The notes beneath the pieces were generated by a model. The model ran no database searches. It was not told where the DNA came from and saw nothing but the letters and a program-made list of their open reading frames with translations. The position numbers and the translations under genes are program-made. Below are positions 24,759 to 64,000 of a stretch of 64,000 nucleotides of DNA, one piece after another; within the stretch, counting starts at the first letter, position 1, and each line of letters opens with the position of its first letter. This stretch comes from a virus. Where the stretch lies: positions 1 through 64,000 of the IMG/VR virus record IMGVR_UViG_3300032116_000102; one strand, 5' to 3'.

Positions 24759-24962
24759 CATGGATCATCGCACAGATATGATTATGCGAGCTGTTGTAAC
24801 TTCCATTGCAATCCTTGGATTTCTGCTTCTCACCTATGCAATTGTTGAGAGCAATTCTGAACCTGTAGAAAAGTTTAAAGTTGTAGATAAATACAAGAAT
24901 TGCAACGTAGTCAGATACACTGATCCCAGTAATCAATGGCACTACCTACTGCACTGCGGTCT

Positions 24963-25601
24963 ATGAACGTTCAACTCATTTGGTCTACACCCAATGCAGA
25001 AGAAATGATTACGAGAATGGCGCGTGTTTCAGCACCCAGCAATCAAGACAACATGGATACTGCACCACGCCTACTTAGGTATCTGATCAATAACAAACAT
25101 TGGTCACCGTTTGAGATGGCAAACATGTGCGTTGAGATTGAAACAACACGTGCAATCTCACCTCAAATCTTGCGTCATCGTTCCTTCTCGTTCCAGGAAT
25201 TCAGCCAGCGCTATGCAGATACCACTGAGCTTGGCTCTGCTGTAATACCGCATTTGCGTCGGCAAGATTACAAGAACAGACAGAACAGTATTGATGACCT
25301 ATCAGCAGAAGACATTGCTTCTTATTACAGACGCATCAGTGCGTTGTATGAAGATGCTGAACATCTCTATCGCGAGATGCTAAGCAACGGCGTGGCAAAG
25401 GAATGTGCTCGTTCCATTCTGCCACTTTCGACACAGACACGTCTTTTTATGAATGGCACAATCAGGTCATGGATCCACTACCTTGATCTCAGAACTGACA
25501 ATGGAACTCAACTCGAACACAGACAAATTGCAGGAGAAATCAAACGAATCTTCTGCAAACAATTCCCCATCATCGGAGAAGCAGCCTTCTCCGAAGAATG
25601 A
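24963..25601 (+). CDS. thyX: FAD-dependent thymidylate synthase
   Basis: HWSPFE, QILRHRSFSFQEFSQRY, KECARSILP, TQLEHR. Confidence 0.95.
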   Translation: MNVQLIWSTPNAEEMITRMARVSAPSNQDNMDTAPRLLRYLINNKHWSPFEMANMCVEIETTRAISPQILRHRSFSFQEFSQRYADTTELGSAVIPHLRRQDYKNRQNSIDDLSAEDIASYYRRISALYEDAEHLYREMLSNGVAKECARSILPLSTQTRLFMNGTIRSWIHYLDLRTDNGTQLEHRQIAGEIKRIFCKQFPIIGEAAFSEE

Positions 25602-25805: not shown

Positions 25806-25958
25806 TCATTTGATTTGACCTCCGGTGACATATGGAAAGTAGCAGATGTTACGGTACGTCAGGCAGAGCCAGGGGCGGTGGGCTAAGTTCCACCAGGCCC
25901 TGTCTGCCTTGGCCTGATCCTCCTGTTCGTACTTGACACCACGGTATGTAAGCGTCAT
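25806..25958 (-). CDS. DUF4278-like small protein (50 aa)
   Basis: MTLTYRGVKY start with a second LTYR repeat. Confidence 0.7.
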   Translation of the reverse strand: MTLTYRGVKYEQEDQAKADRAWWNLAHRPWLCLTYRNICYFPYVTGGQIK

Positions 25959-25964
25959 TATTCT

Positions 25965-25978
25965 GTAGCGGTTTATAC
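25965..25978. promoter_or_regulatory. Candidate NtcA box
   Basis: tGTA-gcggttta-TAC, 7-20 nt upstream of the DUF4278 start. Confidence 0.4.
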
Positions 25979-26380
25979 GGAAAGTATATGACCGTTGCTG
26001 TATATGATGTCGTTCACCACGTAACACAACCATGATTTCAATTTCTAAAACTTGCACAGAATTCCGTAAAGCCTTGGGCTTTAAGGGAAGACTCATGTTA
26101 TTTGTCCTTGGTTTTGTAGGTCTTCTCTTCCCTGGTTGGGTAGCCTATGTTGTCATCGCTGGTCTAGCCAAGTGCACCAAGGATCAAGACATGTTTAAGT
26201 TCTTAGTACAATTTGCTGATTGAACCATGACTGAAGAACAGCTTGATGCTTTACGTCATCTAATCCAACAAGAGATTAACTGTGCCCAAATTGATGGCAT
26301 GGAACATGGTGTCTGGGGCTGGGCAGAAAAACAACTAGATGAAGGATGGCAAGACTTGAAAGATAGTTTTAAATCCACCT

Positions 26381-26395
26381 AAGTTCTACACACTA
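26381..26395. repeat. Putative recombination core site AAGT-tctacac-ACTA
   Basis: Overlaps a TAA stop (26380-82); left border of the cassette block. Confidence 0.55.
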
Positions 26396-26407
26396 CGAGG
26401 TTCACCA

Positions 26408-26767
26408 ATGACTCAACGACACCCAATCACTCCGCCGCCTGAGCTTGTACAGCAGTGGCTTGGCACCTACTTCGGTGCCACCGTTACTGGTGAAGTAAGC
26501 GATGTTGAGCTTGCTCTTGCCACCCAATCCGCCCGCTGGGGCGCTGATCAGGAGCTGGAGGCGTGCTGTGAGTTGCTGAACTGTGAACTTGGCACTGGCT
26601 GGGGGCATGGAACCAAACTCCGCGCCGCCCGCCGCCCCAAGCCGCCGAGCTTGAAGGAGCAGGCGCTAGGTGCCCTCTATGCCATAGCCACAGGCGCTGA
26701 TGACACTAGAGAGTTTCACCAAGACCTTGAAACCATTAAGCAAGCTCTTGAATCCCTGCCCGATTAG
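26408..26767 (+). CDS. Hypothetical protein (cassette 1)
   Basis: HPITPPPELVQQW...WGADQELEACC...RPKPPSLKEQAL; GC-rich. Confidence 0.7.
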   Translation: MTQRHPITPPPELVQQWLGTYFGATVTGEVSDVELALATQSARWGADQELEACCELLNCELGTGWGHGTKLRAARRPKPPSLKEQALGALYAIATGADDTREFHQDLETIKQALESLPD

Positions 26768-26779
26768 TCAACATCACTA
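26765..26779. repeat. Putative recombination core site TAGT-caacatc-ACTA
   Basis: TAG is the stop of 26408-26767. Confidence 0.6.
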
Positions 26780-26791
26780 CAAGGTTCAACA

Positions 26792-27178
26792 ATGACTCAA
26801 AAACAATCACCTACACAGGCAGAGCCAACAGACAAAGAGCTGGCAGAGCTGTACCGCAAATCCTATTACGAATGCGAAGACAGACAAGGTGATGCGGCGC
26901 AAGTATTTGCGCTACGTGCTGTTCTCGCCCGCTGGGGCAACCATCCGGAATCTCCAGGTAGTTCAACGCCGCAGCCCATCCCAGTGAGTGAGCGCCTGCC
27001 AAGACCGGAGGATTGGGATGAAGAAGGGAGGTGTTGGGGTTTTCACCAGTACAACCCGGAAGACGACGACATTTGGGAATCTTGGTATTTAGTACCAACT
27101 CAACACCTGTTGCCTTCTGTCCAATGGCTGGGCTTTTCCCACTGGCTCCCCGCCAACGCTTTGCCCCAGCCCTCTTAG
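26792..27178 (+). CDS. Hypothetical protein (cassette 2), DUF551-like C-terminus
   Basis: PIPVSERLP...SHWLPANALP. Confidence 0.65.
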   Translation: MTQKQSPTQAEPTDKELAELYRKSYYECEDRQGDAAQVFALRAVLARWGNHPESPGSSTPQPIPVSERLPRPEDWDEEGRCWGFHQYNPEDDDIWESWYLVPTQHLLPSVQWLGFSHWLPANALPQPS

Positions 27179-27190
27179 TCCGATCAACTA
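27176..27190. repeat. Putative recombination core site TAGT-ccgatca-ACTA
   Basis: TAG is the stop; next ATG follows immediately at 27191. Confidence 0.6.
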
Positions 27191-27472
27191 ATGAAACTTG
27201 AAATCAAGCTCACCGATGAGCGCTACAAGCATACAAGCATTGATGAGCCCGCTGAAATGACCACCACTTGGGAAGCCGAGATGGATGACTGCTCAGTTCA
27301 CGCTTGGTTCAAAGTGTTTGAGAGCGTGCTCGGTGCTGCTGGCATGACCGAAAAGCTGATCATGCGCGGCGCTTGCCAGCTCGCCTTTAACGAGTGCCGC
27401 GACTTTGAGGAGATGAAGAAGCTGAGCAGCGACTACGACCTTGACTTCAGCGACAACGCTGCTCCCCAGTAG
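27191..27472 (+). CDS. Hypothetical protein (cassette 3)
   Basis: ORF track; GC-rich codons. Confidence 0.65.
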   Translation: MKLEIKLTDERYKHTSIDEPAEMTTTWEAEMDDCSVHAWFKVFESVLGAAGMTEKLIMRGACQLAFNECRDFEEMKKLSSDYDLDFSDNAAPQ

Positions 27473-27484
27473 TCAGACCCACTA
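27470..27484. repeat. Putative recombination core site TAGT-cagaccc-ACTA
   Basis: TAG is the stop; right border of the cassette block. Confidence 0.6.
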
Positions 27485-27487
27485 CTT

Positions 27488-27784
27488 ATGAAAGGATTTA
27501 GTTCAACACAAAAACACACACGTTCATCTAGTTATTGGGTGGCAGCGTATGTTAAAGATAATGACGATGAACCAATCAACATTCACAAAAAGATCTTGAT
27601 CTATAAACAAGGTCAAGACAAAGAAGCATTGATGACAAACTATTGTAACTCCATCATGAAGATCAACAGAAACATATGGGAGATCCTGGTGCACCAGGGA
27701 CCATCTGAGATCCCAGACTCGGGTGATCAGATTGTGATTCGTTTATCCCGTGAACCATTCAAGGGCTCTCACATCCTGAAGTAA
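27488..27784 (+). CDS. Hypothetical protein
   Basis: ORF track. Confidence 0.6.
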   Translation: MKGFSSTQKHTRSSSYWVAAYVKDNDDEPINIHKKILIYKQGQDKEALMTNYCNSIMKINRNIWEILVHQGPSEIPDSGDQIVIRLSREPFKGSHILK

Positions 27785-27803
27785 TAGTCCCGAACGGGAA
27801 GAT

Positions 27804-27831
27804 GGACCTGAGCACGTCCTTAAACTACTCA
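27804..27831 (+). ncRNA. H-type pseudoknot leader (family D)
   Basis: GGAC-C-TGAGCA-C-GTCC-TTAAAC-TACTCA; stem 1 compensated relative to the other copies. Confidence 0.65.
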
Positions 27832-27864
27832 TTAGTTTTATTTATCATTCAATTCATCACAATC

Positions 27865-28632
27865 ATGAAACTCCTCAAGTTCTCCAGTGGTAATGCCAAG
27901 CTGCGTAATCGTTTGATCTTCAGCCTGCCAGCTGGTTATTCGTGTCCACATGCTGGTGTCTGCAAGACCATGGCTGATCGGGTCACTGGTGAGATCCGTG
28001 ACCTGCCTCAGCTTACAGGCACACAAGCAGATGACTACCGCTGCTTTGCTGCTATGGCAGAGACCAGGCCCAACGTACGTGATGCTCGTTGGCACAACTG
28101 GGATCTGCTGCGTGAAACTATCCACATGAACGGCAATCAAGTCACACTTCTCCGTGACCTGATCGATATGTCCCTCTTGATGCACGCACCAAAACCTTTG
28201 GTACGCATCCATGAGTCAGGTGACTTTTGGACTGAGAACTACATGAGGGCTTGGATGATGGTTGCCAGGGAACGGCCCAACCAAAAGTTCTACGCATTTA
28301 CAAAATCATTAGGCATGTGGATTAATCTGCGTGAGCAGATCCCATCCAACTTCTATCTCACCGCATCCTTCGGTGGGACACTTGATTACCTCATTCCAAA
28401 GTATCCACACGTTTTTCAACGAGTTGCTTATGTGGTTTACACAGAAGCTGAGGCAGCAGAGCGTGGGCTGGAGATCGACCATGACGACAGCCATTGCTTA
28501 GGTGACAAACCGTTTGCACTCCTGGTCCATGGGTCCCAGAGGGCTGGGTCCGACGCAAGCAAAGCCATCTCTCAACGCAAGAAGGAAGGTGGCTTTGTGG
28601 GATACAGCACATCAAAACAAAAGACAACTTGA
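27865..28632 (+). CDS. Gp88-like phage protein
   Basis: GNAKL, FSLPAGYSCP..C..C, RIHESGDF, FYAFTKS. Confidence 0.7.
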   Translation: MKLLKFSSGNAKLRNRLIFSLPAGYSCPHAGVCKTMADRVTGEIRDLPQLTGTQADDYRCFAAMAETRPNVRDARWHNWDLLRETIHMNGNQVTLLRDLIDMSLLMHAPKPLVRIHESGDFWTENYMRAWMMVARERPNQKFYAFTKSLGMWINLREQIPSNFYLTASFGGTLDYLIPKYPHVFQRVAYVVYTEAEAAERGLEIDHDDSHCLGDKPFALLVHGSQRAGSDASKAISQRKKEGGFVGYSTSKQKTT

Positions 28633-61149: not shown

Positions 61150-62004
61150 TCAAAGCTCAGGTATTTCATATTCTTTTGTGCTGTTGCAATAGTGTTTGAA
61201 AATAATTTCACTTGTGTTTCCGGCCCAAGATGCTACCTGAGGCACGGGAATACCAGCCTCAATCCAGCGGCTAATTGCAGTGTGTCGACAGTCATAAGGA
61301 CGATATAAATGCGTAATCAGTTCAGCTTGATAAAAAGGTTGCAACTTTTTGCGAAAGTAACTTTGAAAAGCAAGCCTATCCCATGGAAAAACAAAACGAT
61401 CACTCTGTGGTAATTGCTTTAAAATTTCTTGGCATTTACCGTTTAATGGAACCCAGCGACGTTTGTTGGTTTTGGTGCTGTCTTTTAAACCATGTGTCAA
61501 GGTGTAGTTTTGATGCACCAGGATTTTATTGTCTTTAATGTCGTCCCAGAGTAATGCGCGTACTTCTCCGGTACGCATTGCAGTTTGAAGCATAAACTCT
61601 GTGTACCAAGCCCAGTTAACATTCTTGTAAGTTAATTTTGCTTCCAAAGCTGCAAGTACTAAACCTACTTCGTTGCGTGGAATAACCACGACTTCCTCAT
61701 CCCGTTGAGGAGCTTTTGGCATTTTAAAACTTGCCAAAGGATTTCTGTTGATGTAAGCGACATCTTCTTGTGCTGCCCATTTGTACATTGTTTTTGTGTA
61801 CATGGCAACGCGCCTAGAAGTAAGCACGGGTTTTTCTCCCAAAATCCAAATCATGATTTTGCGTGCCTCTTCAAAATCTTGTATGGGGCAGCGTCCCAGC
61901 CATTTGGTTACCTGTCTGTAATCTGACGTAAGGCTGGTCGGGCACAAAGAAATTGAACGCTCTTCGACGAAGGCGTTCCAAAGTTCAGAGAGCGTGGTTG
62001 GCAT
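61150..62004 (-). CDS. Tyrosine recombinase lacking an N-terminal arm-binding domain
   Basis: AMRTGE (R), TKT (K), PYDCRHT, WAGN, KHY (Tyr); 284 aa from ATG 62004. Confidence 0.92.
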   Translation of the reverse strand: MPTTLSELWNAFVEERSISLCPTSLTSDYRQVTKWLGRCPIQDFEEARKIMIWILGEKPVLTSRRVAMYTKTMYKWAAQEDVAYINRNPLASFKMPKAPQRDEEVVVIPRNEVGLVLAALEAKLTYKNVNWAWYTEFMLQTAMRTGEVRALLWDDIKDNKILVHQNYTLTHGLKDSTKTNKRRWVPLNGKCQEILKQLPQSDRFVFPWDRLAFQSYFRKKLQPFYQAELITHLYRPYDCRHTAISRWIEAGIPVPQVASWAGNTSEIIFKHYCNSTKEYEIPEL

Positions 62005-62017
62005 GATATGAGTTGAG

Positions 62018-62055
62018 AAGAGCGATACACTAAGACACCACTCTCCTTTTGTCAA
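62018..62055 (-). promoter_or_regulatory. Recombinase promoter TTGACA-N17-TAGTGT overlapped by the core-like site TAGT-gtatcgc-TCTT
   Basis: -35 at 62050-62055, -10 at 62027-62032, site at 62018-62032. Confidence 0.6.
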
Positions 62056-62831: not shown

Positions 62832-64000
62832 GGCGGCCTCAAGGGCTGCAACACGAGCGCGAAGCTGCTGAATCTCAGCGATCAGAAGAGGCACCAACAC
62901 CTGATGGTCCATTTGCTGGTAGATCGGATTGCCGTCATCATCAACGGCATCTTTTTCGCCCGTGACACAATAAGGCGCAACCTCCTGCGCCTCGTGTGCA
63001 ATCAGCATTGGGCGCTCAACGGTCGCGCCATTCATGACGCCTCTGTAAACTTTGAAGGCATCAATAGTGGCTCCGGCGTTCTCTAAATCGCCCAAGATGG
63101 TCTTAGAGCGATAATCCGAAGTAGTGTTGTATGCAACAACGCCGCCCCCACGGTTGTAAGTAATGCTGCCTCGTGGGGCATTTAAGTCTGTGGCAAACCT
63201 AGAAAAGATCTGATCCCCAGAGGTTTCGTTGCCCCAGATATTGAGAATAGCCGCTGATGTCGAAGCGTCTGACCTGAGCGCACACGTATTTACGCCTGTC
63301 TGGGAAAGCACAGAAAAGGTTGCACTAAGGACGGGGTCAGTAGAGTTAATAACCGTTTTGCCTGAACTCGTAATTCGCGCCCGCTCAGTCGGGCTGCTCG
63401 CTCCGTCGGCGGTAGTGGAGAACACTAATCTCGATCTATGGTTAGATCCAGAAGTCCAGCTACCGTCTGCGATGCCTTCAATAGATGCGCCAAGATTAGA
63501 TGAGTTGTCTGTAAAGTAAATTGCGCCAATTCCTGAAGTGCTCGCACTCGGCAAACTGTCTCGTGAAAGCTGGATGGTGCCATCAACACCGGAAGCAGCG
63601 GGGTTTCCTCTAATCACCACCCTTGCATTACTGAGAGTGTTACTAGACGTGCCAACTAACAACCTGCCGGAGCTGTCGATGCGGGCGCGTTCTGTTCCTT
63701 GTATTCCAAATAGAAGTGGAAATGCCCCACGAGTTTCTAATGTCCCCGTGCCTGCGTCTGAACGAAGCTCTACGCCCTGCGTATTGCTACTGACACGGAT
63801 AGTAGAAACACCGGAACGAGCTACCTCTAAGCCATCACCAACACCAAACGCAGGACTAGTAGTGCCAATCCCTACACGGCCTCCCGTTGTGATGTTTAGA
63901 ACTTCAGTGTTAGATACTCCTTCATAAAGGCGAAGATTACTAGAACCTGTTCCTCCGTTCGTGGGAATTAAGCGCCACTGGTTTCCGCCATCTGCCCTGC
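62829..64000 (-). CDS. Tail fibre with C-terminal intramolecular chaperone (peptidase S74); 5' end outside window
   Basis: Repeats VGIGTTSP, ERARIDSSGRLLVGTSS, RLVFSTT...ERARITSSG; YNTTSDYRSK...LIAHE...LIAEIQQL; frame open to the right edge. Confidence 0.9.
   Translation of the reverse strand, partial: RADGGNQWRLIPTNGGTGSSNLRLYEGVSNTEVLNITTGGRVGIGTTSPAFGVGDGLEVARSGVSTIRVSSNTQGVELRSDAGTGTLETRGAFPLLFGIQGTERARIDSSGRLLVGTSSNTLSNARVVIRGNPAASGVDGTIQLSRDSLPSASTSGIGAIYFTDNSSNLGASIEGIADGSWTSGSNHRSRLVFSTTADGASSPTERARITSSGKTVINSTDPVLSATFSVLSQTGVNTCALRSDASTSAAILNIWGNETSGDQIFSRFATDLNAPRGSITYNRGGGVVAYNTTSDYRSKTILGDLENAGATIDAFKVYRGVMNGATVERPMLIAHEAQEVAPYCVTGEKDAVDDDGNPIYQQMDHQVLVPLLIAEIQQLRARVAALEAA
63413..63427. 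repeat. Putative recombination core site TAGT-ggagaac-ACTA inside the tail fibre gene
   Basis: Perfect arms; encodes LVFSTT. Confidence 0.55.
63644..63658. repeat. Putative recombination core site TAGA-cgtgcca-ACTA inside the tail fibre gene
   Basis: Encodes LVGTSS; same codon phase as 63413. Confidence 0.55.
63860..63874. repeat. Putative recombination core site TAGT-gccaatc-CCTA inside the tail fibre gene
   Basis: Encodes VGIGTT; same codon phase; one arm mismatch. Confidence 0.45.

Follow-up and report, generated by a model that had tools for sequence, protein, structure and literature searches.

What are the short repeated sequences that separate a run of small genes in the genome of an uncultured lake cyanophage, and do they take part in moving those genes between phages? 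We addressed this question for IMG/VR virus record IMGVR_UViG_3300032116_000102, of which we analysed positions 1 to 64,000 (hereafter the window). This 64-kb window is the start of an 85,559-bp record that CheckV rates as complete, with a genomic GC content of 47.0%. Within it, three consecutive plus-strand genes, g1, g2 and g3, are bounded by four junction sites, J1 to J4, related to the pattern TAGT-N7-ACTA (Table 1). A preliminary description of this DNA had read the locus as an integron-like array, in which single-gene cassettes were inserted by a site-specific recombinase encoded elsewhere in the phage. The evidence presented here leads to another reading, namely that the four sites are junction linkers and that cassettes are probably swapped by short-homology recombination through them.

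Four junction sites between small genes

All four junction sequences listed in the preliminary description were found exactly, at 26381, 26765, 27176 and 27470. At each of them the left arm overlaps the upstream stop codon and an ATG follows 0-12 nt later, as had been stated. The exact pattern TAGT-N7-ACTA occurs four times in the window against 0.53 expected, and none of 100 shuffles reached four. Three of these four exact sites are consecutive gene junctions inside 720 bp, and the whole 85.6-kb genome holds no TAGT-N7-ACTA beyond the four. The remaining one, at 63413-63427 (TAGTGGAGAACACTA), lies inside an 829-aa tail-fibre open reading frame (ORF; 62829-65318, minus strand). Its 15-mer recurs within long ORFs of L038, L086 and G005 (L numbers denote related viral loci and G numbers genomes; G000 is the present genome, L094 the locus of G001, and L002 phage S-H1). 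From this recurrence, the site looks like conserved coding sequence and not a junction linker.

J1 departs from the exact pattern in its first arm, where the stop codon TAA of the upstream gene orf51, at 26380-26382, replaces the T of the linker's TAGT. J1 is a decayed copy of a linker with the spacer TCTACAC: in relatives L081, L090 and L094, TAGTTCTACACACTA stands at the same position, and the CGAGGTTCAACA leader between it and the g1-family gene is the same as here. The J1 leader, CGAGGTTCACCA, contains GAGG. Both J1 and J2 are followed by C(G/A)AGGTTCA(C/A)CAATGACTCAA, a shared stretch that had already been pointed out; from this common leader it follows that duplication or recombination produced some of the local similarity.

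The three genes had also been described as GC-richer than their flanks, which a sliding window confirmed: GC content is 0.51-0.57 across 26350-27550 and 0.40-0.46 on either side. GC content at third codon positions (GC3) is 0.58 in g1, 0.53 in g2 and 0.70 in g3, compared with a mean of 0.46 (standard deviation 0.08) for the long ORFs of the window.

A linker family with ordered spacer classes

We next looked at the same pattern in 77 non-redundant viral loci (377 kb) fetched via relatives of g1, g2 and g3. TAGT-N7-ACTA occurred 52 times against 1.3 expected, a 39-fold enrichment, and none of the other 256 four-base arms came near it in this respect. Only the 7-nt spacing was enriched, with other spacings giving 1-8 occurrences. 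The near-palindromic relative TAGT-N7-ACTT turned up almost as often as the palindrome itself (31 times, with 1.7 expected), and the left-arm variants TAGC, TAGG, TAGA and TAAC occurred without a compensating change in the right arm. These two results show that the palindrome is not maintained. An inverted repeat thus describes the sites incompletely. Their occurrence at junctions is real and non-random, and what is conserved is a core of the form TAG(T)C-N5-CACT(A/T).

This core defines a linker family with about ten recurring spacer classes, including CATTACC, CCGATCA, CAACATC, CACCTTC, CAGACCC, CCACCTC, TCTACAC, CGCTTCC and close variants of these. The wider consensus is cCCAG|TAGTC-N5-CACTA|A, which is G-poor and spans about 15 nt, or as much as about 21 nt if the CCCAG before it is counted. 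The TAG of the linker is usually the in-frame stop of an upstream ORF of at least 50 codons, and the ATG opening the next ORF lies 0-13 nt past the linker. Linker orientation always follows that of the genes. The linker is kept where its TAG is not the stop in use, for example in tagTAGT and TGActagCCATTACCACTA.

Spacer classes differ in the company they keep. In a table of 122 non-redundant sites, skewed to g1 as the gene through which the loci had been collected, CAACATC is found mostly after g1-family genes, and CATTACC and TCTACAC mostly before them. CCGATCA is promiscuous, with 11 upstream and 9 downstream families, and CAGACCC has 8 of each. To remove the g1 bias of this table, we scanned IMG/VR for the exact 15-mer TAGTCCGATCAACTA, which gave 55 non-redundant contexts. 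About 43 of these were true junctions, flanked by no fewer than 10 different genes upstream and 12 downstream.

The classes follow one another in a fixed order. Type A arrays run TCTACAC, CAACATC, (CCACCTC), CCGATCA, then CAGACCC or CAAACCC, and type B arrays run CATTACC, (CGCTTCC or CATTCCC), CACCTTC, TCTACAA. Among 44 non-redundant arrays, 80 ordered pairs were concordant with the type A order and one was discordant. The array in the window reads (TCTACAC)-g1-CAACATC-g2-CCGATCA-g3-CAGACCC and is thus a standard type A array. In an integron the cassettes would come in variable order, and the fixed order of the classes is unlike this. Homologues of the genes do occur in different genomes, in different slots and beside different neighbours, as the preliminary description had anticipated in calling them single-gene cassettes; the order of the classes around them stays fixed at 80:1.

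Considering this fixed order, each pair of neighbouring linkers defines a slot. The g1 slot lies between TCTACAC and CAACATC. At least eight unrelated protein clusters occupy the slot between CAACATC and CCGATCA, and five occupy the slot between CCGATCA and CAGACCC or CAAACCC. One family, the ...LAIA.ELEAQ proteins, sits in several different slots. Variation also occurs within a cassette: the C-terminal domain of g2 (26968-27166, 66 codons) is present or absent in frame among phages, and short g2 forms in L081 and L093 end in ...SSTQPS before the same CCGATCA linker.

Breakpoints of recently shared DNA

The clearest case of recent sharing involves g3. Window positions 27176-27485, from the first base of J3 to 1 base past J4, are 99.03% identical in nucleotide sequence to G001, so that the shared block consists of g3 and both linkers. 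G001 is a complete genome of 38,361 bp with 59.3% GC, compared with 85.6 kb and 47.0% GC for the present genome. Besides this block, blastn found only g1 at 81% identity and a few short stretches in common between the two, and the flanks outside the two 15-mers are unrelated. In line with the single-gene cassettes proposed in the preliminary description, g3 is a recently transferred cassette whose breakpoints lie exactly at the sites.

Other pairs gave similar pictures. L009 is 96% identical over 26223-26778, ending at the end of J2, and L023 is 94.6% identical over 26915-27194, ending just after J3. Between L025 and L023, g1 is 100% identical from linker to linker, and a block shared by L025 and L220 is 96.6% identical from linker to linker. 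Across all loci we collected segments of at least 95% identity common to otherwise unlike contigs; 44 of the 289 ends of such short segments lay within 3 nt of a linker, against 2.4 expected.

Assembled public metagenome contigs (Logan) aligned to the window join 26779 to 26915 or 26918, and join 27484 to 27788, skipping orf98. They also connect 26967 with 27167, leaving 1 nt between the two, which removes the g2 C-terminal domain in frame. Together with the pairwise comparisons, this shows that where otherwise unlike phages have recently shared DNA, its edges lie on linkers.

Mosaicism inside g1

Members of the g1 family, which has more than 585 relatives in viral contigs, are themselves mosaic. 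Their variable segments reassort independently across four conserved blocks. Codon identity in these blocks is 90-97% among proteins whose overall identity is about 55%; in the 12 successive codons of RRPKPPSLKEQA it is 83-97%. The block at 26616-26667 is 93% identical to the marine podovirus S-RIP1, and there the contig depth in lake metagenomes spikes to about 1900, with many loose ends. The conserved g1 blocks, at which recombination also acts, are clearly not sites. Since the same mosaic behaviour occurs at these blocks, general short-homology recombination is favoured.

A related observation comes from phage S-H1 (L002), where two adjacent genes (1251-1290 and 1502-1541) start with about 39 near-identical nt (MTEQHPITPPPEL) and then diverge completely. 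The pair suggests recombination inside the conserved 5' block of the g1 family.

Patchy distribution of the linkers

The genes of the array also occur without linkers. Four complete relatives (G006-G009) carry g1 genes and no linker, and a linker after the g1-family gene is recognisable in about 20 of 57 cases. Elsewhere, ATGA or ATGACTGA overlaps connect the homologous genes, as is the case for g3 homologues of GC-rich phages. Among isolates, S-EIVl, S-CBS2 and S-H1 possess either g1 homologues or the same island, and in them the linker pattern is found at chance level only. The preliminary description had held that homologues lacking the sites would speak against it, and this is partly the case: about 60% of g1 homologues, most g3 homologues and these three isolates are without sites. 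Their absence from G006-G009, the isolates and many homologues implies that linkers are dispensable. They are patchy within a lineage, are shared across lineages, and travel with the array.

Outside the uncultured viral loci the linkers were not found. The linker contexts used as queries gave no match in 50,697 deposited phage genomes, and the linker with the g1 leader gave none in 185,579 cellular species genomes, in which a looser linker pattern matched four times, below chance. One of these four matches lies in a contig filed as a Gammaproteobacteria metagenome-assembled genome (L271, 4033-4055), where the linker-like TAGTCATCTTCACTA comes after the 3' end of an ...ELEAQ-family gene; it is probably a phage contig mis-binned into a bacterial genome.

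In the present genome the array lies between the core genes ThyX and GP88. Among about 80 syntenic relatives identified through GP88, this interval measures between about 130 nt, where it holds neither cassettes nor sites, and the 2.2 kb found here. Empty or differently filled islands between the two core genes, which the preliminary description had asked about, thus exist. Gene order varies as well, with orf98 and g1 found in either order, and the last linker before the GP88 leader is CCGATCA, CAGACCC, CACCTTC or none. In L177 (3242-3344) a nearly empty slot has its CCGATCA and CAGACCC linkers 73 nt apart, and the stretch between them resembles what is left of a lost gene at its 3' end.

Structure, expression signals and candidate enzymes

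The junctions were also examined for structure and expression signals. RNA folding of the four junctions gave -1.9 to -4.2 kcal/mol, with z about 0 relative to shuffled sequences. A hairpin or cruciform was rejected, since compensating changes are absent and shuffled sequence folds just as well. The attC-like structure implied by the integron analogy is accordingly not seen in these weakly folding 15-nt sites. No sigma70-like promoter lies at the four junctions (the region holds 3 such sites against 2.9 expected, all elsewhere), and no intrinsic terminator was found there. The cyanobacterial LexA box is AGT-N8-ACT. As a candidate it was set aside on spacing, since N8 gives 5 matches and N7 gives 52. 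Compared with lox-, FRT- or dif-type sites, the linker arms have only 4-5 conserved bases on each side, and their inner bases, C and C, are asymmetric.

The window encodes one tyrosine recombinase, a PF00589 integrase (Table 1), to which the preliminary description had tied the array. No PF00589 protein is present in G001 (100% complete, 38 kb) or G004 (97% complete, 78 kb), which carry four and six sites, and no serine recombinase was found in six site-bearing genomes. The arrays of G001 and G004 exist without PF00589, and we reject the link to the integrase. The only enzyme common to G000 and G001, and one of the few proteins that they share, is a small HNH endonuclease, which lies outside the window in the present genome (74028-74453, minus strand). 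It gained no support as a linker enzyme, being equally present in the complete linker-free relatives G006-G009. A Pfam scan of window proteins, run in two batches covering part of the ORFs, recovered SSB, a primase-helicase, polymerase A, a Gp157-like protein and DUF5895.

How cassettes may be exchanged

Among one population of uncultured freshwater cyanophages, the linkers stand where small accessory genes are usually joined by an ATGA overlap. A single polycistronic message would cover the array, and translation would terminate and re-initiate at each linker. Co-infecting phages would recombine through short identical linkers by general or relaxed homologous recombination, exchanging cassettes. 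The same exchange would run through the nucleotide-conserved blocks inside g1, making linkers the shortest of several anchors. A double crossover in two different linkers would replace one slot and preserve the order. The linkers would stay identical by being copied repeatedly in such exchanges, and cassettes with common linkers would spread further. No dedicated recombinase would be needed, and the integrase of the window would play no part.

Several points weigh against this reading. For homologous recombination to be efficient, 15 identical bases are a short stretch, and neither an annealing protein nor a RecA-type recombinase was found in the two Pfam batches, which covered part of the ORFs. 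The arrays behind the 80:1 order statistic share descent, and the same data served to derive the order. Homogenisation by copying also does not obviously explain why TAGTC and CACTA are common to all classes yet the spacers are discrete. Shared arms with discrete spacers are the pattern expected of an arm-recognising protein that requires a matching core. Some phage or host enzyme (a recombinase, or a nicking or homing nuclease) might act on the TAGTC and CACTA arms and require a match in the 5-7-nt core, an explanation we regard as unlikely. On that account, spacer classes would behave like heterospecific lox/FRT sites and give ordered, slot-wise exchange. Such an enzyme would fit the arms common to all classes, the discrete and highly conserved spacers, the strictly preserved order, cassette-exact breakpoints no more than 1 nt from linker ends, and the enrichment of the 7-nt spacing only. 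It would also fit J2, which joins a CAACATC spacer to a leader that normally comes after TCTACAC, with the switch at CACTA. However, tyrosine recombinases are missing from G001 and G004, serine recombinases are missing from all six genomes searched, and the HNH endonuclease common to G000 and G001 is also found in four complete linker-free relatives. The arms are only 4-5 bp long and asymmetric, ACTT is nearly as common as ACTA, TAGC, TAGG and TAGA go uncompensated, and mosaic boundaries of the same kind occur at conserved coding blocks inside g1. We consider it rather improbable that this is a natural enzyme-driven cassette exchange in which cores serve as heterospecific addresses and single genes are swapped slot by slot between unrelated co-infecting cyanophages.

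The linker could instead be a selected expression signal, either a stop codon with unstructured, G-poor re-initiation spacing or a site for RNA processing or protein binding, and this too we hold to be rather improbable. It is suggested by the TAG that is mostly an in-frame stop, with an ATG 0-13 nt later, by the G-poor and weakly folding sequence, by an orientation that always follows the genes, and by the position of linkers where other phages have ATGA coupling overlaps. Mosaic edges would then fall there only because illegitimate recombinants that spare genes must break between them, a corollary that seems no more probable. Yet random intergenic breakage would not yield identical 15-mers in few classes and a fixed order, nor a 99% identical block with both linkers whole. 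The linker is also found where a stop other than its own TAG is used (tagTAGT, TGActagCCATTACCACTA), complete relatives have homologous genes without it, and the junctions have no promoter or terminator. Insertion by the phage's own tyrosine recombinase, as in an integron, is very unlikely. Although a PF00589 integrase exists in the window and the cassettes are promoterless, co-oriented and each bounded by similar sites, that gene is 34 kb away with no attI or Pc arrangement nearby, and complete site-bearing genomes do without PF00589. The sites also lack the length, boxes and structure of attC, and cassette order is set by linker class and not by order of insertion. Chance, or descent of one inherited block, is close to negligible as an explanation: J1 and J2 do share a leader, but four sites were found where 0.53 were expected, related loci show a 39-fold enrichment, and identical 15-mers have differing flanks on either side. 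Recombination through junction linkers therefore remains the reading we prefer.

Gene content of the ThyX-GP88 island

The nearest cultured relative of this genome is the polar freshwater Synechococcus phage S-EIVl, which is distant (about 71% nucleotide identity over the GP88 gene). Between ThyX and GP88, the plus strand carries the small genes orf63, orf51, g1, g2, g3 and orf98 (Table 1). ThyX was detected by tblastn in most syntenic loci. The phages with small ORFs resembling orf51 (S-H9-2, S-SZBM1 and S-RIM32) are cyanomyoviruses.

Table 1. Features of the island and other elements discussed in the text, in window coordinates.
Feature	Position	Strand	Remarks
ThyX	24936-25601	+	core gene, left bound of variable island; annotated thymidylate synthase in S-H1 and S-EIVl
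orf51	26227-26382	+	small gene before J1; ~80% identical in nucleotide sequence to small ORFs of S-H9-2, S-SZBM1 and S-RIM32
J1	26381-26395	+	AAGTTCTACACACTA; class TCTACAC, decayed; next ATG 26408
g1	26408-26767	+	119 aa; anchor gene of arrays; phrog_32006; internally mosaic family
Conserved g1 blocks	26408-26445, 26519-26667, 26744-26779		
J2	26765-26779	+	TAGTCAACATCACTA; class CAACATC; TAG is g1 stop; next ATG 26792
Recombinant 5' end of g2	26780-26914	+	g1-type leader and first codons (CAAGGTTCAACAATGACTCAA...) fused to g2 body
g2	26792-27178	+	128 aa; N-terminal ARWG-type module and C-terminal domain (26968-27166)
J3	27176-27190	+	TAGTCCGATCAACTA; class CCGATCA; TAG is g2 stop; g3 ATG 27191 directly adjoins
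g3	27191-27472	+	93 aa; weak phrog_6458 match; GC3 0.70
J4	27470-27484	+	TAGTCAGACCCACTA; class CAGACCC; TAG is g3 stop; next ATG 27488
orf98	27488-27784	+	low-GC small gene; no linker on right side
GP88 leader	27785-27864	+	conserved non-coding (TCCCGAACGGGAAGATGGACCTGAGCACGTCC...); right border of island
GP88 gene	27865-28632	+	GP88 family, PF17338 (E 4e-41); conserved core gene
Tyrosine recombinase (PF00589 integrase)	61153-62055	-	34 kb from array

No function could be assigned to the cassette genes. g1, g2 and g3 have no Pfam match, and their only PHROG matches are to families of unknown function. The predicted structure of g1 is all-alpha (predicted local distance difference test score, pLDDT, 77) and matched no PDB fold at E <= 0.001. 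The 5' end of g2 is recombinant, on the evidence of its resemblance to the J1 leader, the alignment of g2 homologues only from residue 12-13, and the contig joints from 26779 to 26915 or 26918.

To the right of the array, orf98 is present or absent among relatives and shifts in position, lying before g1 in L119, L121, L124 and L156 and after the array here. The GP88 leader is kept in L112, L123, L124, L125, L131, L143 and L153, directly after differing linkers or none. It holds two small inverted repeats, TCCCGAACGGGA and GGACCTGAGCACGTCC, which are common to many relatives. The true start of GP88 is probably the ATG at 27865 (MKLLKFS) and not 27802, as the relatives begin at MKLLKFS. On the minus strand, between ThyX and the array, a 96-aa ORF (25806-26096) is 70-90% conserved in many syntenic relatives; it has a weak DUF4278 match (E 4e-4) that is below the cut-off.

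Relation to known systems

A literature search found no paper describing the linker motif. Its nearest described counterpart is the promoter-early stem-loop (PeSL) of T4-type phages. According to Arbiol et al. (2010) and Comeau et al. (2014), PeSLs are mobile regulatory cassettes, conserved intergenic elements made of a strong sigma70-type promoter and a terminator stem-loop, and recombination between PeSL copies shuffles small ORFs in hyperplastic regions (PMC2839356, PMC4122927). Both systems have short conserved intergenic motifs on either side of small, non-essential ORFs, placed in a hyperplastic region that core genes enclose. Insertions, deletions, replacements and horizontal transfer are in both cases explained by exchange between motif copies. 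For PeSLs, mini-circles produced by exchange between neighbouring motifs are known as well. Unlike the PeSL so described, the linker is 15 nt long, overlaps a stop codon and has no promoter, terminator or stable hairpin. Linkers also come in about ten classes whose fixed order defines slots, and they occur in non-T4 cyanophages of at least two unrelated genome types.

Integron attC sites are imperfect inverted repeats of about 57-141 nt with R''/L''-L'/R' boxes. The linker array resembles an integron in its promoterless single-gene cassettes of one orientation, its recurring short site, and the occurrence of the same cassette with different neighbours across genomes. It differs in having no adjacent IntI, attI or Pc, in 15-nt sites with no R/L boxes and no compensated structure, in an order fixed by site class, and in site-bearing genomes without any tyrosine recombinase.

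Heterospecific lox/FRT sites, with 13-bp arms, are an engineered system for recombinase-mediated cassette exchange, and the core site of tyrosine recombinases generally has inverted arms of about 11-13 bp around an overlap region of 6-8 bp. The linkers are comparable to lox/FRT in working only, with common arms, differing spacers, and an exchange that appears confined to like sites, so that a cassette between two unlike sites is replaced and the order stays as it was. Their arms are 4-5 bp and asymmetric, unlike those of lox/FRT, and no cognate recombinase was found in the genomes searched. The arrays of other cyanophages built on ATGA or ATGACTGA overlaps share the same families (g1, g3 and ...LAIA.ELE.Q), orientation and dense packing; these, by contrast, have no separate linker, a TGA and not a TAG stop, and no recurring 15-mer.

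Accessory-gene islands are where host-takeover and counter-defence genes of phages turn over. If an enzyme is involved, the linkers would be a compact natural cassette-exchange tool and a natural counterpart of recombinase-mediated cassette exchange, distinct from integrons and PeSLs. Linkers can be used as a marker for mobile accessory genes in viromes, and they offer a model, open to testing, of how recombination can be channelled by conserved sequences of very small length. The movement of single small genes between unrelated phages is poorly understood, and here the exchange has a visible grammar of ordered 15-nt linkers.

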